64,000 nt of DNA from Wickerhamiella versatilis (lineage: Eukaryota). Below are positions 6,495 through 46,873 of this stretch, in pieces. The first letter of the stretch is position 1. The number at the start of each line of letters is the position of its first letter. The position numbers and the translations under genes are program-made. The DNA lies in NCBI GenBank assembly GCA_030867685.1, contig JAQOWU010000001.1, positions 806,001-870,000 on the forward strand. Direction: 5' to 3'. Under the pieces are notes generated by a model. That model was not told the DNA's origin and searched no databases. It was given only the letters and a program-made list of their open reading frames with translations.

Positions 6495-8321
6495 ATGCAG
6501 GCTAATATGGATGTTGAGAAAAAGCCTGGAGGAGAACAGGATCTACAAAATTCGTCAAGCTATGCAAGCTCCGAGGGAGTTTGGGAAAAAAAAGTTTTAA
6601 CCGGATACCGACCATATAGCCACTGGTATGATGGTTTTCGGCCGTCGAGTTTCCAAGAACCCAAGGCAAGTGAATTAGACTTTGACAGTCAAGGTATGTC
6701 GAGGACCGATATTGCCCAGGAAAGACTGTCACGCTCAACACCCGCGTTGAAGCGTCGCCACATAACTATGATTGCGGCATCCTCTTGTGTAGGTACTGGT
6801 TTATTTATTGGCTCGGGCTCTACTCTAGCTGCAGGTGGGCCTGCAGCACTGCTTATTGGCTTTGCTGTCCCGGGAATAGCTCTTCTCCTTACGATTCAAA
6901 ACACATCCGAGCTAAGTTTACGGTACCCAACTGTAAGTCCGTTTAGCCAACTATCCACAAAATTCTTAGACTCTTCGTGGGGGTTCAGCCTCGGCTGGCT
7001 CTATGCTTTCCAGTGGATGGTAACAGGTCCTCTTGAACTGATCGCTGCCGCAATGTTAACCCAGTATCAAACTTGACAGGAAGCAGACACTGGTGGTGCA
7101 GGCGTCAACCCAGTGGCATGGGTAGCCATACTGTATTTCTTTGAATTGTGTGTCCACCTGTTCGGTGGGTCGTTGGGTTATGCGGAGCTAGAATTCTTCA
7201 TTGCGTGCATCAAGGTGACAGCTACTTTGGCTTGGATCATATATTCAATAATATACAATGCAGGTGGTATTCCCGGTCATGGTTATATCGGAGGACACTA
7301 CTACTATGATCCTGGTGCATTTTTCAACGGTTTTAAGGGTGTGGCTAATGTAATGGTTTCAGCAGCATTTGCCTACGCTGGTACAGAAGTAAGCGCGTTA
7401 GCAGCAGCTGAGACGGCTAACCCTGTCCGTGCAATTCCATCCACAACTAGACAAACTTTCTGGCGTATTATCGTCTTTTTCGTTGTGGCAATTTGTATGG
7501 TCGGTCTCACGGTGCCCTATAATATAGGAAACCTTGGTAGTTCAACGGAAGGCTCAGGTTCACCATTTGTACGGATGCTGGAGCTTGCCGGAACTCACGC
7601 TCTTCCGACCCTAATGAACGCTGTTGTAATGTTTTCTGTATTTGGTGTTTCCAACGCTGCTATATACGCAGGATCCCGGACTCTTGTAGCCCTCTCTGTT
7701 AGTGGTAATGGGCCGAAGTTCCTATCTTACATCGATCGTCGAGGTCGTCCTCTAATTGCCCAATGCTGTATGCTGACGTTTGCCCTGCTATGCTTTGTGT
7801 CTGCAAGCTCGAAATATAATGATGTTTTCAACTGGCTCTATGCCTTCGTTGAGCTAGTCGCGATGTATGTTTGGGCCTCTATCAACTTCTGTCATATAAA
7901 GTTTAGGTTGGCTTGGCGTTATAACGGGCGATCAACCTCTGAACTTCTCTACGCTGCACCGCTGGGTATTTATGGTTCCATTATTGCTGGGTCAATCCTA
8001 GTCTTCATTATCGGAATAAATTTTTGGACAGCTGCAGCCCCTCCGTTGCCAGAAGGCGGGAGCCAGCTTACAAGTTCTGGCAGAGTTCAGAACTTCTTCC
8101 AGCAAAATCTCTCTGTACCGTTTGGATTGGTAATTTATGCGATTCACAAAATTTATTGGAAGAAGAAGTACAATAATTGGGGATATGTCGGTGTTAAGGA
8201 TATTGACCTGGATGAAGGTGTGCGTGACATAGACTATGACGTTGTCGAGGCTGAAAATGAAAGAGCACGGGAGAGGGGACGAAAGAATTTCTTGATTCGG
8301 TTGGGCCATATCTTCTGCTAG
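6495..8321 (+). pseudogene. Yeast amino-acid permease (YAT/GAP1 family) interrupted by one in-frame TGA
   Basis: ORFs 6495-7076 and 7113-8321 share a frame and read ...AAAMLTQYQT*QEADTGGAGVNPVAW... with TGA at 7074-7076. Motifs RHITMIA..VGTGLF, FAYAGTE and FWRI are intact. Confidence 0.75.
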
Positions 8322-10388: not shown

Positions 10389-10767
10389 CACCAATGATAA
10401 GTCGTCTTTAGTAACGAGTAACACTTAATTCATAGGCGCGCGTGATCACTTACTAAATATTCTGTCGAGCGGCTAAATATTAGGTCAGAGATAAACGATG
10501 CAGGTTTCGATTAGACGCTCTAAATACGCTCTCAGTCCGCAATAAACAGCAAATAAAGTCGATTTGATTTTGCTTAAGCCGAATATAATAATTAATATGG
10601 CGTAGGCAGCTACCTGGATATCTTCATAGCATCACATATCGTCAGCGCTAAAAACCAGGGTAGCGCTTCTCGATCTCAGTGAGTAAATTAGATTACTGAT
10701 ATATGACCATATCCAAAGCGAGAGTATATATGGAACTGGATCTGATAACCTTAGAAAGCATAGGAAC

Positions 10768-13158
10768 ATGTCTAAACCATCCGGCAATGCAGGGATGCAG
10801 AACGGATTTGACATCTCAAAAGCTGATAGTCTCAATGAAAGGGAGCGGTCTCTAGTCACGAGAAGGAGCAAGCTGCTGGGACCATCCTACAAGCTCATGT
10901 ATGAGCACCCAGTCGAATTCGTACGCGGAGAGGGTGTATATCTCTATGACGCAGATGGAAATTCTTATTTGGATTGTTACAACAACGTCTGTTCTGTAGG
11001 TCATTGCAATCCTCGCGTAGTGAAGGCAGTATCGGATCAGTTGGCCACATTGAACACGCATACACGTTACATGAGTGAGAAGATCCTGGACTTTTCTGAA
11101 AAGTTACTGGGTACATTTGAGCCTGAACTGGGCCATGTGATGTATGCTTGTAGTGGAAGTGAGGCCGTGGATCTGGCACTTAGGACTGCAAAGTTCTATA
11201 CCGGTGGCACTGGTATAATCGTCACGGACTACGCATACCATGGTACTACTGCTGCTGTATCAGCTATCTCACCTTCGCTAGGTGAGTACACTCCCATCGA
11301 CTTGCATGCTCGTACTGTACGTTCACCTTATGCCTATCGCGCAGGCGACGGTGTGGATGTGGAGCAGAGACTTGCCGACGACGTTGAATCAGCTATCAAG
11401 GACATGAATCGCCATGGAATTAAATTTGCTGGATTCCTTGCCGATAGCATTTTTTCTTCTGACGGTCTTTTCACTGCACCAAAGGGATTCCTGCAAAAAA
11501 CAGTCGACGTTGTGCACAAGTACGGCGGTCTTTATATAGCAGATGAGGTCCAACCAGGATGGGCTCGTACAGGGAACCATATGTGGGGATATCAAAATCA
11601 TGGTATCGTACCCGATCTTGTGGTTATGGGAAAACCCATGGGTAACGGCATGCCTATTTCTGCCATGGTAGCCCGTCCTGAATACCTGGAGGACTTTGGC
11701 AAAAAGGTCCGCTATTTCAACACATTTGCAGGTAATCCTGTAGCAATTGCTGCTGCAAATGCTGTATTTGATGAACTGACCACTGGAGGTTTAAAGGAAA
11801 ACTGTAGAGTTGTTGGTGATTATTTGCTAAAAGGATTCGAGAAAATCTCCACGAGATTTGCCGAAATCGGTGATGTTCGTGGTGCAGGTATGTTTTTTGC
11901 TGTAGAGTTTGTCAAAGATCCAGTCACGAAGGAGGCTGATGATCAGTTAGCACGAAAGGTAGTGGCGGAACTACGTGAAAGAAGAATTTTGATAAGTACC
12001 ACTGGAAAACTTGGCAACAGCTTGAAAATCCGACCATTGCTGAGCTTTACCCATGAAAATGCGGACGTTCTTTTGAAAGAATTCGAAGATGCATTAAAGA
12101 GCAGTATAGCTGCGTTGTATCCTGGCAAGAAGAACAACAGCTCTTTGACCGCAGAAAAGCATTTTCTTGACAACGATTTCGCAGTGAATGTTCTCAAGAG
12201 TTACTACGGAATTGAAGCAGTCGAGGCTAAGAAATTGAACAGCGAGCGCGATGAGAACTTTCTTGTCCATGCCATTAATCCCGACCGCAAAATCACGATA
12301 AAGTTTGCTCATCCCTCAGAAGATCCACTTGCAAGTAGCTTCCAAACTGATATTTTGCGATATTTGAATACGCATGACCCTTCTTTGCCAGTACAAAAGA
12401 TAGTCCCGAGCACATCTGGCGACTCTCAAATTCGTATTAACTGTGATGGTATCATGAGAACTGCGAGAGTGGTGACTTTTCTAGACGGTCAGTTACTATC
12501 TGATGCCCCAAGAAGCACTGTGCAGGCTGAAAATCTTGGTAAAATAGCAGGAAGAATTGCTAAAGCCCTGGAAGGGTTTAGCCATCCTGGACAGGATCAC
12601 TTACTGCACTGGGATGTTCAGCATGCTTCCCAGGTTCGAGTATATCTTAGTGCTATCAAGAACCCCAAACATAGGGAACTTCTGGAAAAATGCCTTAGCC
12701 ACTTCGAAGATTATGTGAAGCCCAAGCTGGATAAGCTCCGGAAGCAGGTAATCCACAATGACTTCAGTCCGCAAAATTTGCTCGTGAGTGCTAAGGATCC
12801 AGATCAAGTCACAGGCGTTCTTGATTTCGGTGATTCTGTGTATACACCGCTCGCCATCGATCCTGCGGTTGGGGCAGCGTACCAACTGGGGAAGGATGAT
12901 GATCTCCTCAAGCGTGCAGTTTCTTTTGTTAAAGGGTTTCATTCTACGAATCCCCTCACTAAGGAAGAACTCTCGCTTATTTATGATTTGGTTGTCACGC
13001 GTACGGTTATCCGAATAGCCATTTCAACCTGGCGTGCTGAAAAATTCCCAGATAATGCTGCATACATACTGCGAAACTCCGCCAATGTATTTGATCAGTT
13101 TGAACAGCTTGTTGCTTTGAAAGACGGAGAAAAGGCGTTCAGCTCTATCTCGCAATAG
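10768..13158 (+). CDS. Fusion of a class-III PLP enzyme (AGXT2L/PHYKPL phospho-lyase-like) and an aminoglycoside-phosphotransferase-fold kinase (hydroxylysine-kinase-like)
   Basis: N-terminal half: YLDCYNNV, CSGSEA, YHG, IADEVQPG, MGKPMGNG (PLP Lys), YFNTFAGNP. C-terminal half from about nt 12150: SERDENF, VIHNDF...NLL, DFGD. No stop codon between the halves. Confidence 0.88.
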   Translation: MSKPSGNAGMQNGFDISKADSLNERERSLVTRRSKLLGPSYKLMYEHPVEFVRGEGVYLYDADGNSYLDCYNNVCSVGHCNPRVVKAVSDQLATLNTHTRYMSEKILDFSEKLLGTFEPELGHVMYACSGSEAVDLALRTAKFYTGGTGIIVTDYAYHGTTAAVSAISPSLGEYTPIDLHARTVRSPYAYRAGDGVDVEQRLADDVESAIKDMNRHGIKFAGFLADSIFSSDGLFTAPKGFLQKTVDVVHKYGGLYIADEVQPGWARTGNHMWGYQNHGIVPDLVVMGKPMGNGMPISAMVARPEYLEDFGKKVRYFNTFAGNPVAIAAANAVFDELTTGGLKENCRVVGDYLLKGFEKISTRFAEIGDVRGAGMFFAVEFVKDPVTKEADDQLARKVVAELRERRILISTTGKLGNSLKIRPLLSFTHENADVLLKEFEDALKSSIAALYPGKKNNSSLTAEKHFLDNDFAVNVLKSYYGIEAVEAKKLNSERDENFLVHAINPDRKITIKFAHPSEDPLASSFQTDILRYLNTHDPSLPVQKIVPSTSGDSQIRINCDGIMRTARVVTFLDGQLLSDAPRSTVQAENLGKIAGRIAKALEGFSHPGQDHLLHWDVQHASQVRVYLSAIKNPKHRELLEKCLSHFEDYVKPKLDKLRKQVIHNDFSPQNLLVSAKDPDQVTGVLDFGDSVYTPLAIDPAVGAAYQLGKDDDLLKRAVSFVKGFHSTNPLTKEELSLIYDLVVTRTVIRIAISTWRAEKFPDNAAYILRNSANVFDQFEQLVALKDGEKAFSSISQ

Positions 13159-13425
13159 CGCGCTTAATTCATATGTGAGTAAATAAATTATGAAATAATA
13201 AACTATAACGTACTTCAGAGCAAAGTCTTTTTTTGAGCCTTTGATCATATTTGCTCAATAACTCCTGGGCATTGTTATGAAAGCGATTGGACCCTAGATA
13301 ATGAGCTTCGCGGCAACAAATATGTCAGCACAGCCGATGGCGGCTGGCTTTGATAATGAAATACCCGATCCGGGGTATTTATACGGTACGAGGTGACCAT
13401 ATTCCGTAATAGTTCTCATTCTGCA

Positions 13426-13791
13426 ATGCCTAAGGTCTGTTACGGAAGCGGCCCTGGACTACCACTGTCCCCTGCTGTGAGAGCTGGAGATTTCGTATAC
13501 ATTGCAGGCCGTGTCCCTTCCATCGGGGGTAAAACTGTTGAAGGTACCATCCAGCAGCAAACTGATGCTGCCTTGCTCAGCCTCGACGAAACACTGAAGC
13601 TGGCAGGATGTGACAAGGATGATGTTGTACGAGTCTTCGTCATTCTGACTGATCTTTCCGAATTTTCTGGCTTCAATGAAGCATATGCCAAATACTTTGA
13701 TAGTAACCCACCTGTTCGTACAACTATTGAGGCAAAGCTCGCCGGTACCTTTAGGGTTGAAATAGAGGCGGTTGCATACAAACCATTGTAA
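13426..13791 (+). CDS. RidA/YjgF/UK114 family imine deaminase
   Basis: PLSPAVRAGDFVYIAG, FNEAYAKYF..NPPVRTT (catalytic Arg) and VEIEAVAY. ATG at 13426. Confidence 0.9.
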   Translation: MPKVCYGSGPGLPLSPAVRAGDFVYIAGRVPSIGGKTVEGTIQQQTDAALLSLDETLKLAGCDKDDVVRVFVILTDLSEFSGFNEAYAKYFDSNPPVRTTIEAKLAGTFRVEIEAVAYKPL

Positions 13792-14003
13792 CTTAGTTAG
13801 ATACTAAAAAAATAGCTGTTGCTTTACAGTAAACTCAGTGATATTCGTTATCCCAGAGTAGCACACGCGTGTGTTTCAACAATACCTCTCTGTAATGGTA
13901 TAAGGTTTTATGTATCACAACAACTCATTAAATTATCTTTTTTTATGTTCATTACCAACGAAACGAATAAGAATAGGGCTATATTCCAAGATCAACGCCC
14001 CAT

Positions 14004-26062: not shown

Positions 26063-27193
26063 TCAATCTCTGAAGCATTTAGGGTCTACAATCATCGGCT
26101 CCTCAATTGAAGAACCTAGTTCGCGGCCTAAGTCACTTAAAATTTGAGTAAGTGTTCGACGATGATGTCCCTCGAAGCCTACAACTGGTTCCGCCTGGAG
26201 CAATGCATCTACAATTGCTCCCTCAGTAGCGTCTGCAGCTGCGCGAAAGAGATCGTCAATGTCATCATCCAGAACGTATTCAGAGCACGTAGTATTCGTA
26301 CTCACTGCGATGCAAATATCACCAGAACCATTTCCCCAAAATGCACCTGTCCTTCCTATCCCCACCCCAGCTCGGTGAGCTAGACGATTAAGTCGACGTG
26401 CATCGAGTGGGGCGTCTGTGGCCAGTACAACAATAATGGAACCTTTCTCTTTAGAGAATTCCGCCTGTGCTTGAAGGTGGTGTGAAAGCCAGCCCCCAAG
26501 GCCTATTCCGCTAAGGGTAAAATCCTTAGGATCTCCAAAATTAGCGAGCACTAATGCACCTACAGAAAAGTTTCCCATGGAGGATTTGGCTTTTCTGGAT
26601 GCGCTCCCAATGCCACCTTTCATACCGAAACAGCTCATTCCCCTCCCAGCACCCACGGATCCTCGGGGAAAATTGCTGGTAACAGTCTCTATTGCCTTGA
26701 TACCGTGATCGGCTGTGATCTTTTGCGATTGAAGATTATTCAAAAAGCTATCGTTGCACTCCAGCACAACAGGGTTGAATGTAGGCAGCTCGCGACCTAG
26801 TCGGGGATCGACTGAGGACGCCCAGCGTACCGATGCATCAAATAGAGAGCCGATGCTGTACGTATTTCCTAACATAATAGGGCCAGAGAGTAGCCCTAGC
26901 TCATGTATTTGTACCAGCCCAGCTGGTTTGCCAAACCCATTAAGGACAGCATATCCACATGCAAGTTCACGCTCTAGTGGTATAGCTCCAAAGTCAATTG
27001 CAGTGCATCCTGTCTGGATCTCACCCCCGTCGAGAGTAACATGACCAACCTGAACACCATCGACATCTGATAGCAAATTGAAGTTTCCAGTGGGTACACG
27101 AGGTTTTATCCATATTCCCTGCTCTCGGTACCGACGAACTAGAAATGCTGCAGTCTCCCTCTCGAAATCATCCCACTCATAGGTCACCACCAT
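26063..27193 (-). CDS. DmpA-like P1/S58 peptidase (L-aminopeptidase/D-Ala esterase-amidase family)
   Basis: N..SDVDGVQVGH.TL, NGFGK..G..Q..ELG, PVVLECND, GSVGAG.GM, KGGIGSAS, ANFG, GSIIVV.ATDAPL and GNGSGD (autocleavage Gly-Ser). Confidence 0.92.
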   Translation of the reverse strand: MVVTYEWDDFERETAAFLVRRYREQGIWIKPRVPTGNFNLLSDVDGVQVGHVTLDGGEIQTGCTAIDFGAIPLERELACGYAVLNGFGKPAGLVQIHELGLLSGPIMLGNTYSIGSLFDASVRWASSVDPRLGRELPTFNPVVLECNDSFLNNLQSQKITADHGIKAIETVTSNFPRGSVGAGRGMSCFGMKGGIGSASRKAKSSMGNFSVGALVLANFGDPKDFTLSGIGLGGWLSHHLQAQAEFSKEKGSIIVVLATDAPLDARRLNRLAHRAGVGIGRTGAFWGNGSGDICIAVSTNTTCSEYVLDDDIDDLFRAAADATEGAIVDALLQAEPVVGFEGHHRRTLTQILSDLGRELGSSIEEPMIVDPKCFRD

Positions 27194-35024: not shown

Positions 35025-36452
35025 CTACTGGATCATTTGGCACAATCGTAGTATGATAGCATCCTGCAAGTCATTAGGAGCTTTGCCGATGTAGTTATTA
35101 AACATCATTGAAAATACAACATCTCGCCCACCAGCGTCAGTTAAATATCCGGAGATTGTTGACACCCCGTTTAGAGAGCCTGTTTTTGCATGAACGTTAT
35201 TTGCTGCTATGGTATTCACCATTCGGTTGCTCAATGTTCCTCCCACGAATCGTCGAGAGTCTCCCGCTACTGGCAAGGCATCATACCAATTATTGAACCA
35301 AGATGCATTCCGTACAGCCAGGAGTAATCTGGTAATGGATTCAGGTGAGATTAGGTTTCCTGTAGACAAGCCACTTCCATCAACAATCCGAACAGTCTCA
35401 ACGTCGACACCTCTTTTCCCTATGTGTTTTGCAATGGTGCTGAGTCCTGCCCTCCAGGTACCGTGACCCACGACTTCGCGGCCGATAGACTTTGCGAGAA
35501 TCTCTGCATGGCCATTGTTGCTGAGTTTTAGGAAAGGAATAAGCAGTGCGGATAAAGGAATGGACTCGTGAGATATCAACTCAGTCGCATTTTCTGGCAT
35601 TTTACTTATCATGGGTGAGGATACAAATTCGATGTTTTCCTGCTTTAGCGCCTTTTCAAATATATTTAATGCGTAATATGTAGGATTCCACACAGCTATC
35701 CATTCTTGCACAGGCATACTGCCATGGGAAATGCTGCCCTGGACTCGAACGGTGTTGCTACCATGATCTCTTTCAATAGTTATTGGGTCATCATCCTCTG
35801 TCTCCTGGTTCACCGTGACTGCCTCATTGACCAGTTTAACGTAGTCTGTTTGAGGGTTTAGTGAAATCATAGGGCTTTCTCCTATATTACCTGGGGAAAC
35901 AGATACAATAACACTCCCAGCATCGTAATCAGTGTCTGGTGATACTGTCAAGGCCGATATTTGGGCGCCATAGTAGTAGGACTCATCGTTCCATTCCCAG
36001 CCATCTCCAAGTCTTTGACTATCAAACCAGGAATCATCCGCAATGACAGATCCCCGTATTCTTTCAATTCCCGTAGCAGAGATTTTTTTGGCTAAATTTA
36101 CGCAGTCAGTGGCAAGTAGTGTTGGGTCACCGCCTCCCTTCAAGTATATGTTGCCGTTCAAGGTTCCATTACGAACCTCTCCATCGCTAGCCACCGTAGT
36201 TTTAAACTTATAATCGGGGCCTAGTACATCTAATGCCACTGTTGAAGTAAGTATCTTTTGGTTTGATGCTGGGAGAAGACGTGTCTGGGACGCATGCTCG
36301 TATAAAATTGAACCTGTCTCTACGTCTGCAATGATCACACCTACCAGTGCACCCTTGAGGCGCTTATCACTTAGCAATTGGTCAATCTCGTACCATATGG
36401 TGCTTGCGGCCGTAACTGTGGTCACAAAGACATTAAGCAGCTGTAGTCGCAT
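35025..36452 (-). CDS. Peptidase S13 D-Ala-D-Ala carboxypeptidase/endopeptidase (PBP4/DacB-DacC type) with signal peptide
   Basis: All three PBP motifs are present: PASNQK (SxxK), LSNN (SxN) and AKTG (KTG). Also GGGDPTL and DGSGLS. ATG at 36452 gives a hydrophobic leader, MRLQLLNVFVTTVTAAS. Confidence 0.93.
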   Translation of the reverse strand: MRLQLLNVFVTTVTAASTIWYEIDQLLSDKRLKGALVGVIIADVETGSILYEHASQTRLLPASNQKILTSTVALDVLGPDYKFKTTVASDGEVRNGTLNGNIYLKGGGDPTLLATDCVNLAKKISATGIERIRGSVIADDSWFDSQRLGDGWEWNDESYYYGAQISALTVSPDTDYDAGSVIVSVSPGNIGESPMISLNPQTDYVKLVNEAVTVNQETEDDDPITIERDHGSNTVRVQGSISHGSMPVQEWIAVWNPTYYALNIFEKALKQENIEFVSSPMISKMPENATELISHESIPLSALLIPFLKLSNNGHAEILAKSIGREVVGHGTWRAGLSTIAKHIGKRGVDVETVRIVDGSGLSTGNLISPESITRLLLAVRNASWFNNWYDALPVAGDSRRFVGGTLSNRMVNTIAANNVHAKTGSLNGVSTISGYLTDAGGRDVVFSMMFNNYIGKAPNDLQDAIILRLCQMIQ

Positions 36453-36618
36453 GGGCAAATTACATAAGCAGTCTGATAAGAGCTCGACGTTTATTCGTGC
36501 AGAATAAACTGATGAGAACCCTGTGGTCACCTAGAAATCGTATGCAGTCATAAAATATTAGCTTGGATATTCTTGTCTAAATAACAACCTTACATAGCAA
36601 CCATGTGCTAGGCGGAAT

Positions 36619-38403
36619 TCAGCACCAGATATTGTAAACCCGCACTGGCCAGGACTTGCTTTGGCGCTGTGCTCGTTCAACAGCAATGCTTTCACGGAGC
36701 TCGGCAATATTTGGGTTTCTTACGCCGGTGAACACGTCAATATTTTCTAAGCGAACGTACGACCAGTCCCGAGTGTAAATCTTATGGCCAACAAATAAGA
36801 CAAGGATGATGCATGTGGACAGCCAAGTTTCGAAGAAATTTTTGGCTTGACTAGCACCATTATGGTCCGCACCAGGATCTGTCCATCCCAGTGGGAAAAG
36901 GGCGATCCAGAATTGGAGACAAATTGTCAGGGCGGCTAATAGCATACCCACGATGGGTATTGTGTACCCACCAGGTGCAGCAAAGTCGAGATCTTTTTTA
37001 GGGTCGAGGCCATTTTTCTTCATAGCCAATCTGTTGCGAAGATGGCATACACTGACTGAGCCCCAAGTCCAAAGCGAACTCATGCCACCCAAGGCCGAAA
37101 GCCAATCAAACACTTGGCCATACCCATCCCAGGCTGAAATGAATGCTAGACCGCCAAAGCATAGTGCAATAATGAGTGCTGTCACGGGACGGCCCTCATT
37201 GTCTATCCACAGAAGCTGCTTAGGAGCGTGGCCTTGAGCAGCCAGAGCGACGAGAGTTCTTGTGCTTCCGAATACAGCTGCATTGGCAACCGAAACAACG
37301 GCAAGCAGAATAACAACGTTCATTATTGAAGGAAGAGCCTTGATTCCGGCAAGATTAATGGCAATCACAAAGGGAGAGGCTGATGCATTTGACGCGGTGC
37401 CGAGTCTATCATTATCGTAGGGAACCAATGTGGCCATCATGATAACACTTACAAGATAAAACAGAAGAATACGCCAAAATACTTGCTTACAGGCCCGAGG
37501 TACGGCTTCACGAGGGTTTTGCGTCTCTGCAGCTGCCAGACCGGCAAATTCTGTGCCACTGAACGAGTAAGCTGCTGTTACAAATACCTTGAACACTCCC
37601 TTTGCACCATGGGCAAATGCACCTGGATTGTGCCAGTATTTACCTCCAATGTAGTCGTGATTTGGACCACCACCGCACGCAATAACAATCCCACAGATAT
37701 TGAACCCGATTACAGCCACGACCTTGATGAAAGAGAAAATAAACTCTGCCTCTCCATATCCGCGAACACCAAATACATTGATAAAAAGGACTGTCGCCAA
37801 AAAGAGGCCAACCCATGCTGCTCGATTGACCTCCGTAGCACCATTGTGATCGCCTTTCCAGTAGCCTAAGGTCACGGCTGCGGCGATCAACTCATTTGGC
37901 ATTGTGATAAGCCATCCAATTGCGTAGACCCAACCAATGGCGAAGCCCCAGGAGTGGTCGAGGAAGCGATAATTATAAGCACTGAACGCACCATTCACAG
38001 GATATCTGACCCCGAGCTCTCCCAGTGCATTCATGGTGCAGTAAATCAAAATCCCAATCACCGCAAAGCCAATTATGAGACCCCCTCCTCCTCCAGCCGC
38101 AAGCGCGCTGCCTGATGAGATGAATAGACCTGCCCCGATACTGCCCCCGATTCCAATCATCTGGAGATGCCGGGTCTTGAGCCGTCGCTTTAAAGGAACC
38201 TTGGTGGATGCAGCAATCGCTCGCTGGGATGGTTCGAGATGAGAGTCGTCGTCCAAGAAGTGTACGGGCTTCCAATCCATGAGCCAGCGGTAAATTGGGC
38301 CACCACTTGAGGGATCCGGTTCGAGCGCAACATCATTGACTTCGCCAACCTCATATTGGACTTCCTGGGATACAATGGGGTGCTTTTCTATGTCTTTGCT
38401 CAT
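36619..38403 (-). CDS. General amino-acid permease (YAT/GAP1 family)
   Basis: LKRRLKTRHLQMIGIGGSIGAGLF, GYGEAEF, YSFSGTE, KQVFWRI, SPFVIA and terminal WC. Confidence 0.93.
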   Translation of the reverse strand: MSKDIEKHPIVSQEVQYEVGEVNDVALEPDPSSGGPIYRWLMDWKPVHFLDDDSHLEPSQRAIAASTKVPLKRRLKTRHLQMIGIGGSIGAGLFISSGSALAAGGGGGLIIGFAVIGILIYCTMNALGELGVRYPVNGAFSAYNYRFLDHSWGFAIGWVYAIGWLITMPNELIAAAVTLGYWKGDHNGATEVNRAAWVGLFLATVLFINVFGVRGYGEAEFIFSFIKVVAVIGFNICGIVIACGGGPNHDYIGGKYWHNPGAFAHGAKGVFKVFVTAAYSFSGTEFAGLAAAETQNPREAVPRACKQVFWRILLFYLVSVIMMATLVPYDNDRLGTASNASASPFVIAINLAGIKALPSIMNVVILLAVVSVANAAVFGSTRTLVALAAQGHAPKQLLWIDNEGRPVTALIIALCFGGLAFISAWDGYGQVFDWLSALGGMSSLWTWGSVSVCHLRNRLAMKKNGLDPKKDLDFAAPGGYTIPIVGMLLAALTICLQFWIALFPLGWTDPGADHNGASQAKNFFETWLSTCIILVLFVGHKIYTRDWSYVRLENIDVFTGVRNPNIAELRESIAVERAQRQSKSWPVRVYNIWC

Positions 38404-38975
38404 CGTTGGAACGTCACAAAGTTACGACACTATGTAATGCCAATTTCTTATCTTTCATGATGCACCCACCCATACCCATGTGATAAGTGCTTGGCAGCAA
38501 ATAGTCCTTTATCTCGCAGCAGTTCCCCCGCCATGAGGGTTTATTTACTATTTACAGGAAATTTATAGTCCCTAGCTTGACGTTCCCACAGGGTCGCCGG
38601 AACTCTATTCTATTCAAAATAAAGTTCGCGAGCAGCAGAGCAATATATGCTTTCTCAGTATCAAGTCGCTATTAGGTAATGAAGGTAGTGGGCAATGGGC
38701 CTCGCCAAGAGACATTTGAAGTCTCCCCTTCCCTCCACCCCACTTCACGGTGGAGGCTGGGCATGAGCACATGAGCATCAAACAAATAGTTAGGCGGAAA
38801 CTTTTTCTAACTGGAATATGTAAATAAAAGTACAAATACGGGGAATTATGGGAATCGTTATTATACGTTTTTCGTCAAAGAATCCGTCGGAAGGTGAAGT
38901 ACCTGAGTTTTCAGGGTGGCTACTGCATTACAATAAATCATGAGGTTTTTGGAGGATCCTCCAGTCAGCTTCTAT

Positions 38976-40502
38976 TTAAGGCAACCACCGGCGCTTGAGT
39001 GAAGACGATGTCGAAATGGTGCTGTTCTGAATAGCCAGAAACGCGTTCTTGAACGCTTCCATGTCTTCGTAAGTACCAACAGAGATACGAAGCCACGTTG
39101 GCCAGCTGTCCCAGACACGCCCAACGGTCACACCTTGTTTTTCGAAGGCATCAGCGACCTTAGTAGCGTTCTGGCCGGTTTGCATCATGAAGAAGTTTGC
39201 CTGAGAGTCTGTGCAGTTTACACCATGCTTTCCAAGCCACTTAATAGTATCGTCACGAACGCTTCCAATGTACTGCTTACGGTTTGGCACGAGATCAGTT
39301 TGGTTGAGACTCGCGAGCGTGGCTGCAATGGTGGTGACTGAGATCTGGTCAGCACCTTTAGCAGAGATCTTGCTCAGGGCGTCAGGGTGTCCAAGAACAA
39401 ATCCAGCGCGGATACCAGCCATACCGTAGATCTTTGAAAATGTGCGAGTGACCAGCAGGTCAGGGTATTTCTTGATTAGGTCGATTACAGTTGGTACGTC
39501 TGAGAAGTGAATGTATGCCTCATCGACCAGCACCATTGCACCGTGAGGCTTGTTCTCCAGGGCTTGAATGATAGCCTCTCGGGGAGTAATAGTGCCTGTA
39601 GGGTTGTTGGGGTTGCAAATATAGATCAGGCCAGCATCAGAGTAGCTGGTCATCTTCTGGATATCATGGGAGCCATTCTTCAACAAAGGCACGAGATGAA
39701 CGGGATTTCCCAGGCTGTAGGTCATCTCCTGAGCCTGCTGGTAGCCAGGATCGGCGACAACCAGCGACTTGTTCGCCGAGGTGAATACCTGGGGAGCAAG
39801 TTGGAGGACCCAGCCGGACCCTGGGTAGGTTTGGATGTAATCAGAGGTGAGATTGAAGGATTCAGCAATTGTTTCTGATAGTTTGTCATCTAGATCGTAC
39901 TGGTAGCGTCCGGAGAATGCGATCATCTCAGTAATGGCATCCTGGGCAGCTTTGCAAGGACCCAGCGGGTTCTCATTATAGTTGATGTAGGTGCCATTCT
40001 TGTCATATTTTACGGCCTGGGCCTTGACCTTGACTGCAGAACTCTTGCCTTTCACAGTACTGTTGCCGCTGAAATAGGTCAGCTGGGGTTTTGTGTAGGT
40101 ATATGGTTCGTAGCCAGGATTGAGTGTTGCGTAGAAGCCACTTGAGCTACCGTTCACGGATAGGTAGCCATCCACAATTGTCAAGGGAGTGCTTCCACCA
40201 ATACTGATGGTAACAGACTCAGAGCTAGGGCCCAGGGTAACATTGTATCTCGTGGTGTCAGTCATGGCGTCGTTCTCATATACCACTTCGCTAAGCGGCT
40301 CACCAGAGAACGCATTGTCATCAAACTTGTCACCAGGCCCGTCGGTCAGGTGCAGGTATCGGTAATTCGACAGCTCGTTGTAGGTTGTTAGTCCCTTACC
40401 ATCGAAGTCAGAGTTGTCACTCTCTGTGATGAGGTACACCGATTCACCGAACACAAGGCCGAGAAGTAGGAGCTTGGAGAGCATTGTAGCCATTCCATCC
40501 AT
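38976..40502 (-). CDS. Chimeric secreted PLP aminotransferase: signal peptide, yeast cell-wall-protein-like domain, and HisC-like (class I/II) aminotransferase
   Basis: Leader MLSKLLLLGLVFG. Residues ~20-165 are acidic and Ser/Thr/Gly-rich with LSVNGSSSGFYA..N...PY.Y. From aa ~173: NENPLGP, YICNPNNPTG, LVDEAY, RTFSKIYGMAGIRAG (PLP Lys), ANF and LRISVG. Confidence 0.85.
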   Translation of the reverse strand: MDGMATMLSKLLLLGLVFGESVYLITESDNSDFDGKGLTTYNELSNYRYLHLTDGPGDKFDDNAFSGEPLSEVVYENDAMTDTTRYNVTLGPSSESVTISIGGSTPLTIVDGYLSVNGSSSGFYATLNPGYEPYTYTKPQLTYFSGNSTVKGKSSAVKVKAQAVKYDKNGTYINYNENPLGPCKAAQDAITEMIAFSGRYQYDLDDKLSETIAESFNLTSDYIQTYPGSGWVLQLAPQVFTSANKSLVVADPGYQQAQEMTYSLGNPVHLVPLLKNGSHDIQKMTSYSDAGLIYICNPNNPTGTITPREAIIQALENKPHGAMVLVDEAYIHFSDVPTVIDLIKKYPDLLVTRTFSKIYGMAGIRAGFVLGHPDALSKISAKGADQISVTTIAATLASLNQTDLVPNRKQYIGSVRDDTIKWLGKHGVNCTDSQANFFMMQTGQNATKVADAFEKQGVTVGRVWDSWPTWLRISVGTYEDMEAFKNAFLAIQNSTISTSSSLKRRWLP

Positions 40503-41635
40503 TGCAATCCCAATTAAATACGTTTTCTAGCCTATGCAAAACTTATCTATCTGCAATGCCGCGGTTAGGAACCTTCCACAAGTTTTCATGGCGTGTCCTC
40601 GTTCTGGGAGGGCTGGTTTTTTTCAAACAGGTTCGTGGCATACCTTTTACCTGATTTTCAGAGAAATCTTCATTTTTTAAATTTTTTGCTGCCCAACAAG
40701 CCGCCATAGCGTTTGTTTAGTGTGGTTGTCCAGGTTACCACCTTCCTGTTTGGGTAATATTCGTATATGCAATTTGCCCATTTGATCAGAGCAACGGCGG
40801 AATTTAGTGGCCAGCAGCACCCCTCGAGCTTGAAACATTAATGCCTGAAGGGATACTGTAGTGTATTTCGGAGTTATTACCGCTGGTACTGCTGCCTCGG
40901 ATAGTTCCTCTTGCCTAAACCGACTCTTATCTTTGTGATTACTACAAACCCTAGGCTAGCATTAGATTTACCGCGAACAATAATATTACATTGGGATCTA
41001 TACGAGAAAAGAGGAAGGTCAATCCGAGATCCCAGCCCGAGGTGGGTTCAGTTGTGATAAGCACCCAACACAAATCGACATTCACACAAGACCGCACTGG
41101 GTTGTAACATCGAACCACATATCACCACCGCAGCCTGTGCCATTATATCCACTCACATGATTGTGATGGTTTTATGCAGTACGCATGACTGTGCCTAGAA
41201 CCTACCTATTACCTCTATAGTTGATGAGCGATGCAGGACATCTCATTAGAAAAGACCCTTAAAGGGGCAGATAACTCTGCTCACCGCCTAGGAAAAACCA
41301 AGCCATTCTCGCACCATCACAACATCACTGTCCCTTCACCTCCTGCGCTTCCTTTAAATGCAACTACCACTGCTGCACCTGTGCCAGTAGCCGCGGAGTC
41401 ATGAGGGATAAGGGTTTTTCTTCGGGCAAGACCTGCTCACGTGATTGGCTGTCTGAGACTGCGATGACGTAGACATTAGTAACTCGGCCTGGCCCGGGTG
41501 TGTCAGCAGAGCCGGGGGTTCTGGTGTTAAATCAAAAATAAGTCAGGACAAAAGCAGCACCCCTGACAATTACTAATACTTTTCTAGGGTTCGTCAAGCT
41601 GGCAGGTGGACAAATCCGAGCGACCTCTAGATGGA

Positions 41636-43282
41636 ATGCCTCGGAGTAGTAGGCAAAAGAAGAAGCCCTGCAATACCTGCAGCTACCGCAAGGTGAAATG
41701 CAATCGAGTGTCACCAGTGTGTGGGTCGTGTGCCCGGCTGGGTCTGTCCTGCTCGTTTAGTAGAAACGACGAGTTAAACAGTGGACCGAGCCTCCAGGAG
41801 GAGCTGGATAAGATTGAAGAACGTTTGGCTTCTATACTACGGGTGCATGATAGAAAGGCTTACATCCGAGACCATTTGTCGCAATCCACCAACGCGGGGA
41901 GGGTGCCTGATATTCTTGCACGCGAGCGCGGCATTGGCATTGGTGGCATAGAATGTGACCATAAAGGAGAGGGACCCGAATCCACTTTGATCCATACCAT
42001 TTTTGATATGAAAGCGGTGGCTGTAATCGGAGATCTTACGAACGACCCTGGTTTTGTTGATCGGGTCTCCGAAAGTCGGAAATATTATTATGAGTGTTAT
42101 GCGAGAAATTTTGAACACGTTAAGCCGCTGGTAGACTCCTCGGAACACCTCACCGAGGCCGAGATCTCTGAGGGCTTGGCACAATATTATGACCCAGAAC
42201 TTGCAATTGGGTCCCAACCCGTCATGTCTCTATACTTCACGCAAGAAGAAGTGAATTCCCCAGAAATCCATCCATTGATAAAGGATATTTATACATCGAG
42301 TGTTATGATCTATATCTTTCGGAGAATGGGAATCACCGGCAAAAAACTGTATCTTGCCCTTGCCCAGATTCTCCGGGCAACTTCAATATGCGGCCTCAGA
42401 CGTCCTTCTTTTAACTTATTTAAAGCAGTGTCGTTCTCTCTGCCTTTATTAGGGAGCTCATGCTCTCCCCCCATCGCTAATTTTGTCTGCACCATGGGAT
42501 GGGTAATGGCCTCTCAGTTAAGGCTCAATCGCGCGATCACGTATCAGTCAATGCCATTCCTACGGAGGATATCAATCCAGATGTGCTGGTACTCGTTTGT
42601 TGCGTATAGTATGCTTATGGAAATCTTAAGATTCAGGCCCCTGGGTAGCCATACCTGGGACTCTGACTTCCCTGTCCCTTACTGGGAACCTGCCGCGCAG
42701 ATTAAAAGCATCAATTATGTATTAGAACTGGGGAAATTTTACAATGAAAACTTCAGGTCTATCCGTATGGTGGCCACAACCTCTGAGGTGACCCCGTCCA
42801 TCAAGTCCTTAATCCATGACCTTGACGAGGGGCTGGAAAAAAGTTTTGAGCCAGTTGCACGCAATATGTCAGAATTGATAACCAATTTAGTCGAATATTA
42901 CAACCACGCTGCATACCTGTGCTATTGTTTACTCAAATTATGGATCTGGTCCAAGCTTGCTTTTTTCGAGCGCGACTTGGATGCCATTGAAATATGTAGA
43001 GTTGCAGCCCAGAATGTGCTGAAGTGCTCTTTAATTATTGCCAGAGGTTCGTACGGTATGACGTGGACCTCGGTGCAGGCCATGAATTCTGCATTCGAGA
43101 CCATGGTGTTATTATCAGTGAATTGTCCACAGGAGGACAACGCATTATTCCTAGCTCTCATGCAGCAAAGTATACAGCAGTTCCTGGAGGAATGGGGTCC
43201 ATCAGATTTAAAGGCGGGAACAACCCGCATATGGCAGACCCTCTTAGACAAATTATCGGCGTCAGTGTACCAGCCAGTCTGA
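41636..43282 (+). CDS. Zn2Cys6 transcription factor
   Basis: CNTCSYRKVKC......CGSC......C followed by a coiled-coil. First ATG is at 41636. Both ends may be altered by introns. Confidence 0.85.
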   Translation: MPRSSRQKKKPCNTCSYRKVKCNRVSPVCGSCARLGLSCSFSRNDELNSGPSLQEELDKIEERLASILRVHDRKAYIRDHLSQSTNAGRVPDILARERGIGIGGIECDHKGEGPESTLIHTIFDMKAVAVIGDLTNDPGFVDRVSESRKYYYECYARNFEHVKPLVDSSEHLTEAEISEGLAQYYDPELAIGSQPVMSLYFTQEEVNSPEIHPLIKDIYTSSVMIYIFRRMGITGKKLYLALAQILRATSICGLRRPSFNLFKAVSFSLPLLGSSCSPPIANFVCTMGWVMASQLRLNRAITYQSMPFLRRISIQMCWYSFVAYSMLMEILRFRPLGSHTWDSDFPVPYWEPAAQIKSINYVLELGKFYNENFRSIRMVATTSEVTPSIKSLIHDLDEGLEKSFEPVARNMSELITNLVEYYNHAAYLCYCLLKLWIWSKLAFFERDLDAIEICRVAAQNVLKCSLIIARGSYGMTWTSVQAMNSAFETMVLLSVNCPQEDNALFLALMQQSIQQFLEEWGPSDLKAGTTRIWQTLLDKLSASVYQPV

Positions 43283-43766
43283 AACGTTTCAGTAATCTTT
43301 CGTACTAACCTAATAATTTTTTTCTTATCCAGGCACCGACCACAAAGCGAGTATCAAGCCAGAATAAGCAATCAAATGTACAGGGTACGGGTAATGATGA
43401 TTCACTACCTGGGCTATCTTGCATTATCCAACCAGTCTCATTGCGTTATCATCATCCGTGGCCGTGGCCTTGAATGTGAACGTCATAATTTTCGTTGGAA
43501 GTTTTCTCATGATAATCGTGATGTCAATAAAAATCAGCTGGCATGCAAGATGCGCTCGAGACTGTAATGATAATTACAACCATACTAGTTTAGTTTATGG
43601 ATGTGCAGCATTGGTAGCAGGTGGTAGCTGCTAAAGGACACTAAACTTCTTCTTTCAGGCTGATATCGGCATCGACACTAAGAAGTTTACTTATTAATTG
43701 GTTGTGGTCGTCCTGGAAGATATTATCTCCATCGTATTCCTAGGGCTTAACTCCGTATTTCCATCT

Positions 43767-45374: not shown

Positions 45375-46873
45375 TCAGTCAGTGTAGGAAAACGTTATGC
45401 TATATAATGGGGCTATGCGATGACACATTTATCAGAGATAATACAGAGGGTTAGGTCTCTCTCGGTAAAAGTTACTAGGGGCGCGTAACCTTATTCTGAG
45501 AAAGAATTAGGCGTCTTTCAATTAGTCTCAGGATTCGGCATGCTGATTTAGTACTTGCCTGATCTATTATGGACTTACCTAGCCTCCAAAACAATATTTA
45601 CCTCTCAATTTGCTTTCTGGAAAGAAGAACATGGGTTCAAATGTGCTTATTAGTATGATTAGTTAAACAAGATATCACAAGTACGCTAGCAATTTCTACC
45701 GAATATCAAAGGTAAAACTCTCTTGTACGTCTTCATTAGAGCAATACTAGCAATATTTCTAATTTACTACTCATCCAGCAAAAGACTTAGAACTGTTGTG
45801 CCATGCTGGAGAATCTACTCTCAAACACTTCTTATTTTGAATAATATGGATGAGCTATGTATGTACTGGAATATCAGAGGATATCTTCCGAGGTAGCTCT
45901 TACCTTTTGAACTTCAATATTAGTGATATCCCTTTATCAGTCGTAGAAACTGTTGACTTCTTCATCAGTTCCAGGTGAATCATGACTGGAAACGATTTAT
46001 ATAAAATATTTTGGGTACGACTTGGTTGAAATTCAGTTTGCAACAGAAAAGCTGGTGTTGTAAAGTCATGTTGCAAGAAGTCCCTCTTATGAAACGTAAA
46101 TTAGCTACACAAGATAAGCTACTTAAGTAGATATTAGCAGTCTTCTGATATCACCTTAATTTTCTAATTTATCTTGTCATGTCCAGCAAATAGAATTTAC
46201 AAGGCGCGAGGTTGGCTGGATGAAGCGATATAAGCGCACTTGGTTTATCATACATTAAAAAACTGCCAGCCAGTTTCCCAATGATGAGAGGGGAACGGAC
46301 CTATATCTCACAACTTATGGAAACTACAAAATTGATTAGTGGTAATTGCATGGCAAACAGTGAGAAGTCCTGCACATCTTGGAAAGATTAATTTTTTTCC
46401 TCACTGGCTTTGCATAACATGATAACCGACCTAGTAAGGAAGCACAAAGGCATAGTATACATGATATGGTACATATCAACCTTAATTTTGAAAAAAAATG
46501 TTTTTGTCGTACTTAATTTCCCGTTGTTTTCCAATAGAGACACTCCCTAACCTCACTTGGAAGTAATGACAAATATAACAGGGGGACAAGCTTATCTACG
46601 GTCTCCGATCGGTACGCTTGGCTAGCAAGAAGTTCGTATCGAAATAGCATCAAGGTAGCGATTGAAGTTCGTAAAATGCAGTTTTTATCAACATTTATCA
46701 TGTATAGAAGTAATTAGGGTTTATTGAAAGGTTCTGAACCCCCTAAATACCCTGCTCGTATCATTTTTGGTGGAACACCGACGGTCTTCGAGGACCCGCA
46801 GATGGCGCTGACTCAAATTCGGTATTTGAACTAGCTGCTTGGATAGCAACGTGCAATTCAACAGAAGCAACTT

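Follow-up and report, generated by a model that had tools for sequence, protein, structure and literature searches.

The 64-kb window (the whole 64,000-nt stretch of DNA analysed here) contains a single gene that probably encodes a bifunctional kinase/phospho-lyase, both halves of which would derive from a mobile gammaproteobacterial module and have been fused in reversed order, with a hydroxylysine-like compound as the favoured substrate. The C-terminal APH-fold kinase would phosphorylate the hydroxyl of an amino alcohol, and the N-terminal PLP-dependent phospho-lyase would then split off phosphate and ammonia, yielding an aldehyde. For the candidate substrate, 5-hydroxy-L-lysine or a basic amino alcohol like it, this would give 2-aminoadipate semialdehyde, ammonium and phosphate, and the protein would probably serve to release nitrogen from hydroxylysine-like compounds. 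A catabolic module of the type found on IS-flanked plasmids of Klebsiella, in the chromosome of Brenneria and on a contig of Pectobacterium would have supplied both halves together; of its genes the fungal lineage would have kept just the kinase and the lyase, joined end to start, lyase before kinase, and the fused gene would have come under eukaryotic expression signals with its codon usage fully adapted to the host. The features of the locus are:

10425..10767, no strand: intergenic region between the fusion and a divergent Cyt-b5/FMN-dehydrogenase gene, presumed to hold the fusion promoter
10768..13158, + strand: ORF of the fusion, 796 aa, uninterrupted, stop TAG; lyase domain first, then linker, then kinase domain
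10768..12111, + strand: class-III PLP domain of the predicted phospho-lyase branch, residues 1-448 (Pfam, PDB matches, conserved columns)
12112..12159, + strand: junction, residues 449-464, carrying the linker ALYPGKKNNSSLTAEK (alignment with the parents)
12160..13158, + strand: predicted APH-fold small-molecule kinase domain, residues 465-796 (Pfam, AlphaFold2 model, Foldseek, conserved columns)
13159..13425, no strand: 267-bp spacer between the fusion and RidA, with putative signals read from the sequence
13426..13791, + strand: RidA-family gene, 121 aa, ATG at 13426 and TAA at 13789-13791 (Pfam Ribonuc_L-PSP, 1.8e-25)

The first-pass annotation had described a 796-aa lyase-kinase frame followed, after 267 bp and in the same orientation, by a RidA gene, and the ORF, the Pfam matches and the coordinates all agree with it. 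Aminotran_3 covers residues 48-443 (6.5e-70, 236 bits, cut-off 30.5) and APH covers residues 497-709 (3e-24, 86.6 bits, cut-off 23.2). Assembly error does not explain the fused frame: a 796-aa protein 99% identical to the fusion (P0001) has four member sequences from four contigs, the 111-kb X16 contig spans 10400-13812 with 117 substitutions and a TT insertion at 13227, in the intergenic spacer, as its sole indel, the X8 contig (3215 nt) spans 10506-13720 without a difference, and the X14 contig (1746 nt) spans 11478-13223, that is, across the domain junction.

The gene sits in a fungal chromosome and is not contamination, as seen from its flanks, its codon usage and the X16 contig. Flanking genes carry Zn_clus, Fungal_trans and other eukaryote-type Pfam domains, and the GC content (0.45-0.46), GC3 (0.42-0.44) and RSCU distance (0.085-0.088) of the fusion lie within the range of the neighbouring genes; GC3 in the Brenneria lyase and kinase genes is 0.53-0.55. 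Third codon positions account for 30 of the 40 listed differences in the X14 and X16 contigs (binomial p 8e-8) and for 9 of 14 in the kinase half alone, showing that the fusion gene is under purifying selection. Upstream of the gene, 10425..10767 contains GATAA twice and, at about 10724-10733, the TATA-like GTATATATGG; the GATAA density (2 per 343 bp) does not differ significantly from the 3.1 per kb across the window. AATAAA-like words follow the fusion stop in the spacer, which also has a TATA-like word and GATAA twice ahead of RidA; if the poly(A)-like and TATA-like words act as such, they imply two separate eukaryotic transcription units.

The N-terminal half is, judged from its sequence, an AGXT2L/ETNPPL-type phospho-lyase of the class-III PLP enzymes with predicted elimination activity, in line with its earlier reading as AGXT2L-like. 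In the PDB search its best solved relative is 5g4i (355 bits, 6.4e-105, residues 26-445), followed by human ETNPPL 6tor (315 bits, 1.2e-92, residues 27-440), while any other solved class-III enzyme scores at most 194 bits, so that by bit score transaminases, racemases and decarboxylases are all more distant from it than the phospho-lyases. The Schiff-base lysine K289 lies within MGKPMGNG and ADEVQ occupies residues 258-262; in this fold they would be the PLP-binding lysine and the D/E-V-Q motif. Both are at least 90% conserved among 13 fused proteins and the Brenneria genes. Nearby NCBIfam families bear the name 'aspartate aminotransferase family protein'.

The C-terminal half, which the first-pass annotation likewise recognized as an APH-fold kinase, has a confidently predicted bilobal kinase fold (AlphaFold2, pLDDT 93.7, pTM 0.91) and intact catalytic motifs, so that it is, by sequence and model, a small-molecule kinase of predicted activity. 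The motifs comprise the ATP lysine K512, the H-x-D-x4-N loop H663-N-D665...N670 and the metal site D686-F-G-D689. H663, D665, N670 and D686-D689 are invariant across 60 kinases, K512 is at least 90% conserved both there and in the fused-family alignment, and among the 13 fused proteins and the Brenneria genes conservation reaches 90% or more at H663/D665/N670 and D686-G688-D689. The nearest structures are a homoserine kinase, an amicoumacin kinase and an aminopropanol kinase: Foldseek with the kinase model retrieves 2ppq, the homoserine kinase (E 5.9e-15, TM 0.76/0.84), then 6sui and 6ef6 (1.7e-11), and a profile search against the PDB places 6ef6 nearest (9.6e-12), an aminopropanol kinase according to an excerpt of PMC7314540. 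'Hydroxylysine kinase' labels on homologues are automatic database names.

The nearest named relatives of both halves are the adjacent kinase and aminotransferase genes of an eight-gene module, which encodes a binding protein, two permeases, an ATPase, a GntR regulator, the phosphotransferase, the aminotransferase-family protein and an EamA protein. Besides IS-flanked Klebsiella plasmids, the Brenneria chromosome and a Pectobacterium contig carry it; the Klebsiella copy lies between IS110 and IS1 on a conjugative plasmid (pGN-2 type), which points to a concrete and likely vehicle for the transfer. Forty plasmid records match at 60-80% identity, while only one of the 401 sampled Enterobacterales genomes matches at more than 51%. 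In the module the kinase and lyase genes are separate, 2 bp apart and kinase first. The lyase half is 73.6% identical to its Brenneria roseae counterpart (L001:8001-9350), with which it shares the native N-terminus GMQNGFD, and the kinase half is 48.8% identical to the adjacent gene (L001:6940-7998); the values for Pectobacterium fontis are 71.6% and 48.8%. Since Brenneria and Pectobacterium themselves differ in the same way (85.5% in the lyase, 63.4% in the kinase), the gap between 73.6% and 48.8% reflects different rates in the two halves.

The order of the domains in the window protein is the reverse of that in bacteria. Among 49 loci, the hits from one genome per prokaryote species, 44 have the kinase gene immediately before the lyase gene in the same orientation and none shows the lyase-first order, and 143 of the 150 best representatives of bacterial fusions are kinase first, as the first-pass annotation had stated. 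The linker quoted earlier is present at residues 449-464 (nt 12112-12159). Here only about seven to eight residues (ALYPGKK) lack a match in either parent, and in the alignment the free Brenneria kinase matches the following NNSSLTAEK with its N-terminal tail. Because in bacteria the kinase comes first and 2 bp separate it from the lyase, a lyase-first fusion cannot be a simple stop-codon loss, and its almost seamless join likewise speaks against read-through of an operon. The idea that two operon neighbours were fused is borne out by the neighbouring bacterial genes and congruent trees, but not as simple loss of a stop codon. A search of the 64-kb window for leftovers of a duplicated kinase or lyase found none. 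The distant lyase-first protein P0473 (33-37% identity) indicates that such an order can arise independently.

The fusion is not confined to one organism; it belongs to an apparently small family, the lyase-first order being common to at least 14 clusters at 90% identity (49-99% identical). AT, kinase and concatenated trees all place the fused proteins in one clade with Brenneria, Pectobacterium, Klebsiella and Pseudomonas sequences (support 100, 99 and 100/99, respectively), and throughout the trees the outgroups come from bacterial operons or from kinase-first fusions, with several phyla represented. Within this clade the fused proteins are not resolved as a single group, the gammaproteobacterial genes forming a polytomy with them; monophyly of all 14 is marginally rejected for the lyase half alone (p-AU 0.037) and is not rejected for both halves (0.174). 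With the 44 of 49 adjacencies, the congruent trees uphold the proposed origin of both halves from neighbouring bacterial genes, and on this sequence comparison the halves appear to share one history and to be horizontally acquired from bacteria. All 14 fused clusters are presumably fungal: none has an NCBI or UniRef source, which is common among bacterial matches, four of the proteins carry presequence-like N-terminal extensions, and none of the 49 prokaryote loci is lyase first. In P0046 homology stops abruptly inside the DFG motif and gives way to low-complexity sequence, a break that looks as if the prediction had read into an intron.

The neighbouring RidA gene appears to have a different history. 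An alternative start (GTG at 13393, 132 aa) is present in the ORF listing, but bacterial RidA homologues are 120-123 aa long, favouring the ATG at 13426. The product is, as read from its sequence, a Rid-family member by its YjgF/Ribonuc_L-PSP fold, scoring 76.9 bits against TIGR00004, under the archetypal RidA cut-off of 106.25. Its nearest relatives are P0242 (64%) and P0243 (60%), followed by alphaproteobacterial RidA proteins (49-57%). The arginine of PPVRTTIEA near the C-terminus, matched by PPARTT in P0242-P0244, may correspond to the RidA catalytic arginine for imine hydrolysis. Adjacency to the fusion is kept in the X16 contig, which is about 3.4% diverged. RidA is absent from the vicinity of the kinase-lyase pair (within about 8 kb) in all 49 loci, both by tblastn and by profile, and from the 19 annotated features that flank the pair on the Klebsiella plasmid out to 9 kb in each direction, and only 3 lineages of the window RidA type were found, compared with 14 fused clusters. 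The suggestion that RidA formed part of the bacterial unit therefore falls, its nearest named relatives being alphaproteobacterial and not from Enterobacterales. Of the condensed three-gene operon envisaged earlier, the kinase/lyase pair stands and RidA, of separate descent, drops out; the caveat that the three parts might have unrelated origins applies to RidA only. RidA is best described as a separately derived neighbour that may or may not hydrolyse an imine product of the fusion.

The first-pass annotation had also offered hydroxylysine as substrate, a reasonable guess given that the nearest bacterial modules encode a binding protein of lysine/arginine/ornithine type, which scores 265.7 bits against the NCBIfam cut-off of 256.35 for lysine/arginine/ornithine binding proteins and is likewise so named by PGAP on the Klebsiella plasmid. 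Phosphoethanolamine is the substrate of the only solved relatives that the lyase half has, so that the case for hydroxylysine comes entirely from this gene context. A closely related reading, possible though not probable, keeps the enzyme and its origin and takes ethanolamine or 1-aminopropan-2-ol as substrate, giving acetaldehyde or propionaldehyde plus ammonium. It draws on 5g4i and 6tor, both phosphoethanolamine phospho-lyases, on 6ef6 as the nearest solved kinase relative by profile, and on work of the 1970s that reported kinase activity on amino alcohols, and phospho-lyase activity on their O-phosphates, from Erwinia. However, we know of no solved 5-phosphohydroxylysine lyase, so the PDB ranking cannot discriminate between substrates, and the three nearest modules have a basic-amino-acid ABC importer and an EamA amino-acid/amine carrier, not an ethanolamine permease. 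That the protein is a plain transaminase with a degenerate, inactive kinase domain is scarcely credible: the NCBIfam names nearby would suit it, but the bit-score gap favours the solved phospho-lyases, all kinase catalytic motifs are conserved, and the third-position bias (9/14) extends to the kinase half.

Other alternatives concern origin. The lyase-first fusion may have been born in bacteria and transferred already fused, in which case some fused clusters would be bacterial. The almost seamless join, which keeps the native N-terminal tail of the kinase as if it came from lyase-kinase neighbours, would fit, as would the paraphyly of the fused proteins to gammaproteobacterial genes in the lyase tree and the independent origin of the order exemplified by P0473; we nevertheless consider it unlikely, as the lyase-first order is found in none of the 49 prokaryote loci, no collinear lyase-kinase match was found in 401 Enterobacterales genomes, none of the 14 fused clusters has the NCBI or UniRef source commonly seen for bacterial matches, four fused proteins carry presequence-like extensions, and P0046 breaks off as if at an intron. 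Transfer and condensation of a kinase-lyase-RidA operon, with RidA as third step, is quite improbable: RidA is not found within about 8 kb of the pair in the 49 loci or 9 kb on the Klebsiella plasmid, its nearest relatives lie in Alphaproteobacteria and not in Enterobacterales or Pseudomonas, only 3 lineages of it accompany 14 fused clusters, it falls under the TIGR00004 cut-off, and RidA proteins canonically act on 2-imino acids, which differ from the imine expected here. These weigh against its same-strand position 267 bp downstream, the adjacency kept in X16, its bacterial closest named relatives and the fact that PLP eliminations release enamine/imine products. Far less probable again is an ancient, vertically inherited fungal gene or a donation from fungus to bacteria, which would account for the fully host-like composition, the depth of the fused family (down to 49% identity) and the nesting of bacterial sequences among fused ones in the lyase tree; all tree outgroups are bacterial and from several phyla, no named fungal protein is among the 120 best matches, and donation would require un-fusing and re-ordering into a 2-bp-spaced pair inside an eight-gene module.

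The preferred reading, a reversed fusion derived from the gammaproteobacterial module, can be extended to a scenario that we regard as doubtful, in which a plasmid-borne enterobacterial module for hydroxylysine catabolism became a permuted yeast fusion that makes lysine from hydroxylysine, with RidA recruited from a second transfer. If so, integration of a head-to-tail concatemer or another rearrangement would have set the lyase end against the kinase start, and the permuted fusion would have solved the expression of a bicistron in a eukaryote. As 2-aminoadipate semialdehyde is an intermediate of fungal lysine biosynthesis, collagen-derived hydroxylysine could then lead directly to lysine, with ammonium besides, and a RidA of separate bacterial origin, recruited later to clear the imine, would complete a small cluster from two transfers. 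Such a catabolic, possibly lysine-salvage, route would be new for yeasts, and full-text literature searches returned nothing relevant on phospho-lyase or hydroxylysine use in yeasts. The expression of co-transcribed bacterial genes in eukaryotes is an open practical question on which the fusion bears. With an order opposite to that of every sampled bacterial operon and nearly all bacterial fusions, it also offers a clean case for the study of fusion order, and would allow one to test whether order affects the passing of the phospho-intermediate between active sites.

Among known systems, the module of Brenneria roseae, Pectobacterium fontis and Klebsiella supplies the nearest named relatives, in the same clade in all trees, and the lyase N-terminus and kinase N-terminal tail of the window protein match the free Brenneria genes; unlike the eight-gene module, the window has one ORF, lyase first, without the transporter or regulator. 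The bacterial PRK06148 and PRK06149 fusions also combine the two domains in one polypeptide, but they are about 1000 aa long, have the kinase ahead of the lyase, frequently contain a Peptidase_M23-like insert, and fall outside the clade of the window protein, which matches PRK06148 in two stretches (2e-212) and misses both cut-offs (708 bits against 1128 and 504 against 973, respectively). The phospholyase A1RDF1 (PDB 5g4i/5g4j), the best solved relative of the lyase half, is by contrast a stand-alone bacterial protein, whose substrate we take to be phosphoethanolamine. Animal HYKK with PHYKPL, and ETNPPL, share the reaction logic and the same two families, whereas the animal kinase and lyase are separate genes; an excerpt of PMC5200902, citing Veiga-da-Cunha 2012, describes how HYKK and PHYKPL lead to 2-aminoadipate semialdehyde.

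Yeasts are known to have received bacterial operon genes by transfer, though few cases are documented, and the genes of the enterobactin operon stay separate in the recipient yeasts. As described in excerpts of bioRxiv 10.1101/399394 and PMC11043216, that operon passed from Enterobacteriaceae to Wickerhamiella/Starmerella yeasts. The window resembles the transfer outlined there in that neighbouring enterobacterial-type genes are now in a yeast-like genome, and differs from it in that, in place of many genes, two have become one ORF in permuted order.

The ORF joining a PLP phospho-lyase to an APH-fold kinase is a single uninterrupted frame with Pfam matches to both domains, and a RidA-family gene follows on the same strand, as the first-pass annotation had described.

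10768-13158, + strand: fusion ORF, one uninterrupted frame of 796 aa, stop codon TAG
Fusion residues 48-443: Aminotran_3 domain (Pfam, 6.5e-70)
Fusion residues 449-464: linker named in the first-pass annotation
Fusion residues 497-709: APH domain (Pfam, 3e-24)
13426 (ATG), + strand: RidA-family gene, 121 aa (Ribonuc_L-PSP, 1.8e-25), starting exactly 267 bp past the fusion stop

The fused frame is real, with support from a protein cluster and from contigs of public sequencing runs. Cluster P0001 (four members from four contigs) is 99% identical to the fusion. A 111-kb contig of run X16 spans 10400-13812 with 117 substitutions and its sole indel in the fusion/RidA spacer, a contig of run X8 (a food-fermentation metagenome) shows no difference from the window over 10506-13720, and a contig of run X14 bridges the lyase/kinase domain junction; the X14 contigs, from a run only guessed to be RNA, leave 10400-10762 and 13224-13339 without cover. 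Seven runs containing all sampled words of 10400-14000, which may be the source of the window, were excluded from this comparison. The region 10400-14000 is also present with about 3% differences in other public runs.

The window is compact, fungal and intron-poor, with 27 further ORFs of at least 150 aa, several carrying Zn_clus or Fungal_trans domains and the majority being transporters or peripheral enzymes that scavenge nitrogen and carbon. A divergent Cyt-b5/FMN-dehydrogenase gene flanks the fusion on one side and RidA, MBOAT and MFS genes on the other. The composition of the fusion is host-like, with a GC of 0.45-0.46, a GC3 of 0.42-0.44 (0.53-0.55 in the nearest bacterial genes) and a codon-usage distance to its pooled neighbours of 0.085-0.088, inside the neighbours' own range of 0.064-0.18. 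Contamination or mis-assembly of the fusion is rejected in view of the contigs and this host-like codon usage. GATA words in the two promoters (two in 343 bp and two in 267 bp, versus 3.1 per kb in the window) are too few to carry meaning.

The window as a whole looks like a collection of nitrogen-scavenging genes. Other genes in it include the following.

400-1503, + strand: Asparaginase_II (PF06089), 6.8e-116
6495-8321, + strand: amino-acid permease gene with one in-frame stop, at codon 193
26063-27193, - strand: Peptidase_S58 (DmpA-type aminopeptidase), 2.5e-96
35025-36530, - strand: Peptidase_S13 ORF (D-Ala-D-Ala carboxypeptidase, PBP4-like), 501 aa, 5.5e-130

The Asparaginase_II and Peptidase_S58 families are largely bacterial. 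The Peptidase_S13 gene, which adjoins an amino-acid permease and has a host-like GC3 of 0.43, encodes a typically bacterial cell-wall enzyme on a fungal chromosome and may be another transfer. The permease ORFs 6495-7076 and 7113-8321 share a frame and jointly cover positions 1-465 of the AA_permease profile; the gene is either a pseudogene or carries a nonsense mutation specific to the strain, unless the stop is an error. The 36000-46000 block, whose GC (0.47-0.49) and GC3 (0.48-0.58) lie above the rest of the window, contains two permeases (one an AA_permease), a Zn_clus factor and a class I/II aminotransferase that stands out in codon usage (RSCU distance 0.18).

The lyase-first order is rare but not unique, and the fusion belongs to a small family of fused proteins. 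A word-indexed search with the fusion gave 3720 matches, of which the 120 best were listed, and at least 14 clusters are lyase-first, namely P0001-P0013 (49-99% identity over 97-100% of the query) and P0046. APH precedes Aminotran_3 in all 18 of the other two-domain proteins among the 32 scanned, one of them with a Peptidase_M23 insert and one truncated. Among the best 150 phmmer matches from 1.84 billion representatives, three are collinear lyase-first proteins (P0009, P0046 and the distant P0473), four are stand-alone lyases and 143 carry the lyase match in their C-terminal part. Across the proteins and locus ORFs classed, the tally is 176 kinase-first versus 16 lyase-first (window and P0001 included), and an Atlas search yielded bacterial clusters of the kinase-first type and no others. 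The first-pass statement that bacterial fusions place the kinase first is thus correct, by this tally and by the 143 of the best 150. P0473 (771 aa, only 33-37% identity) branches in the lyase tree with distant kinase-first bacterial fusions and has lyase motifs similar to the animal ETNPPL type; the lyase-first order seems to have arisen in it independently.

Both halves of the fusion have close bacterial counterparts. Stand-alone lyase genes of Brenneria roseae and Pectobacterium fontis match the lyase half at 73.6% and 71.6% identity, respectively, and in both species the gene directly upstream of that lyase matches the kinase half at 48.8%. The gap between 73.6% and 48.8% reflects different rates rather than different origins; Brenneria and Pectobacterium show a like gap between themselves (lyase 85.5%, kinase 63.4%). 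In a survey of 49 bacterial loci, taken from one genome per prokaryote species, 44 have a kinase gene directly upstream of the lyase and in the same orientation. A further three show no more than a weak kinase-like match on the opposite strand, and two are cut at a contig end; in none of the 49 is a kinase downstream. In a quick tree of the lyase half, the clade of the window (support 100) comprises 12 fused proteins with Pectobacteriaceae, Klebsiella and Pseudomonas genes, and in a quick tree of the kinase half (support 99) it comprises 14 fused proteins with six free kinases, including those of Brenneria, Pectobacterium and Pantoea. A more careful concatenated tree unites 14 fused proteins with four bacterial operon pairs (100/99), ten of the fused proteins, including that of the window, forming one clade (95/94). 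The three trees mutually agree, and every outgroup is either a bacterial operon or a kinase-first fusion, drawn from Alpha-, Beta- and Gammaproteobacteria and Actinomycetota. From these comparisons we infer that the fusion is a kinase/phospho-lyase pair gained horizontally and now one protein. When only the lyase half is used, a single clade for the 14 fused proteins is marginally rejected (p-AU 0.037); when both halves are used it is not (p-AU 0.174), so there may have been one or more transfers or fusions. Brenneria roseae has another kinase-lyase pair that is more distant (C2:361590-363880, 34% and 50% identical to the window), as well as a lyase paralogue standing alone on C17, the family being multi-copy within single bacterial genomes.

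Indirect arguments point to a fungal nature of the fused relatives. An NCBI or UniRef source, commonplace for the bacterial matches, is lacking for all 14 fused clusters; Arg-, Ser- and Ala-rich extensions at the N-termini of P0006, P0007, P0010 and P0011 resemble mitochondrial presequences; and the homology of P0046 stops inside the DFG motif and gives way to low-complexity sequence, as might result from reading through into an intron. A scan of one genome per prokaryote species with peptide patterns common to the fused proteins returned no lyase-first locus. Together these observations suggest a fungal family, and it is quite unlikely that the lyase-first fusion is itself of bacterial origin. 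The readings of the protein as a plain transaminase and of its kinase as inactive are disfavoured. Against solved structures the lyase half scores 355 bits with the phospholyase 5g4i and 315 bits with human ethanolamine-phosphate phospho-lyase 6tor, the next-best protein being a racemase at 194 bits, and K289 in MGKPMGNG and the ADEVQ motif (258-262) are conserved. The kinase half gave no match at E 0.001 in a single-sequence PDB search; a profile of 60 homologues matched 6ef6 (9.6e-12), an aminopropanol kinase according to PMC7314540, and homoserine kinase 2ppq (8.5e-11). Its AlphaFold2 model (pLDDT 93.7, pTM 0.91) superimposes best, in a fold search, on 2ppq (TM 0.76/0.84), amicoumacin kinase and 6ef6. 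H663, D665, N670 and D686-F-G-D689 are invariant in the 60 kinases and K512 is nearly so. Among the 40 best-supported differences listed inside the ORF between the X14 and X16 contigs and the window, a set apart from 113 further differences, 30 fall at third codon positions (binomial p 8e-8; lyase part 21 of 26, kinase part nine of 14). Given the conserved motifs and this third-position bias, both domains look functional and under purifying selection.

Since the bacterial genes run kinase then lyase with a spacing of 2 bp, a lyase-first fusion requires a rearrangement. In an alignment of the fused proteins with the Brenneria genes, the end of the Brenneria lyase falls opposite window residue about 450, and window residues NNSSLTAEK pair with the N-terminal tail of the free kinase, leaving only about 7-8 junction residues from neither parent. 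All fused proteins share this join site, with variable linkers of 8-20 residues. The order could have been reversed through a head-to-tail duplicate or concatemer, or could descend from an unsampled donor with the opposite order. A tblastn search of the window (E 10) for remnants of an extra kinase or lyase copy, such as a tandem intermediate would leave, gave nothing above chance.

The Brenneria pair belongs to an eight-gene unit encoding an SBP_bac_3 binding protein, two permeases, an ABC ATPase, a divergent GntR regulator, the kinase, the lyase and an EamA carrier. The same eight genes occur in the same order in Pectobacterium fontis and on the conjugative Klebsiella pneumoniae plasmid pGN-2, where they are flanked by IS110 and IS1 elements. 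Forty plasmid records, mostly from Klebsiella, match the window protein at 60-80% identity, and 27 of 401 sampled Enterobacterales genomes have any match at 1e-60, exceeding 51% identity in Brenneria only. This plasmid occurrence and sparse distribution make the module patchy and mobile, and a module of this type is the likely source of the fusion's enzyme genes. The module's binding protein scores 265.7 in the NCBIfam family of lysine/arginine/ornithine binding proteins, above the cut-off of 256.35, and this is the sole point here that favours a basic amino acid, for instance 5-hydroxylysine, rather than ethanolamine. Work on the springtail Folsomia (PMC5200902) has HYKK and PHYKPL converting 5-hydroxylysine to 2-aminoadipate semialdehyde; beyond this and a paper on PbfA (PMC8154272), the literature searched on bacterial hydroxylysine or amino-alcohol pathways offered no useful background.

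The RidA gene does not share this history. Its best relatives among the 120 matches listed are P0241 (99%), P0242 (64%) and P0243 (60%), followed at 49-57% by matches among which every named protein is bacterial, most of them from Hyphomicrobiales and Acetobacteraceae, with no named fungal protein in the list. In a tree of only 122 columns with long branches, P0242 and P0243 fall in one clade with the RidA protein of the window (99), which scores below the TIGR00004 cut-off. Neither tblastn nor a profile found a RidA-family ORF near the kinase-lyase pair in any of the 49 bacterial loci, and none is annotated in the module region of the Klebsiella plasmid. From this absence and its different nearest relatives, RidA is therefore a neighbour of separate descent, and its proposed place in a transferred bacterial unit is not supported. 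A contig diverged by about 3.4% still has RidA next to the fusion, which says little, and a metagenome scan for the locus of P0009 matched 24 stretches, none of them confirmed. Functional coupling of RidA and the fusion is possible but doubtful.

The first-pass reading of operon neighbours fused after transfer is partly right, in that this is a horizontally acquired, fused pair; the fusion is not a one-off, its domains stand in another order than the genes of the source operon, and RidA lies outside the transferred unit. The enzyme families, the bacterial fusions and the transfer of operon genes into yeasts are already known. The literature searched contained no description of a lyase-first fusion in a fungus, and its one yeast paper to mention hydroxylysine employs it as a reagent; within the limits of that literature, the permuted fusion of kinase and phospho-lyase in a fungus is the new element.
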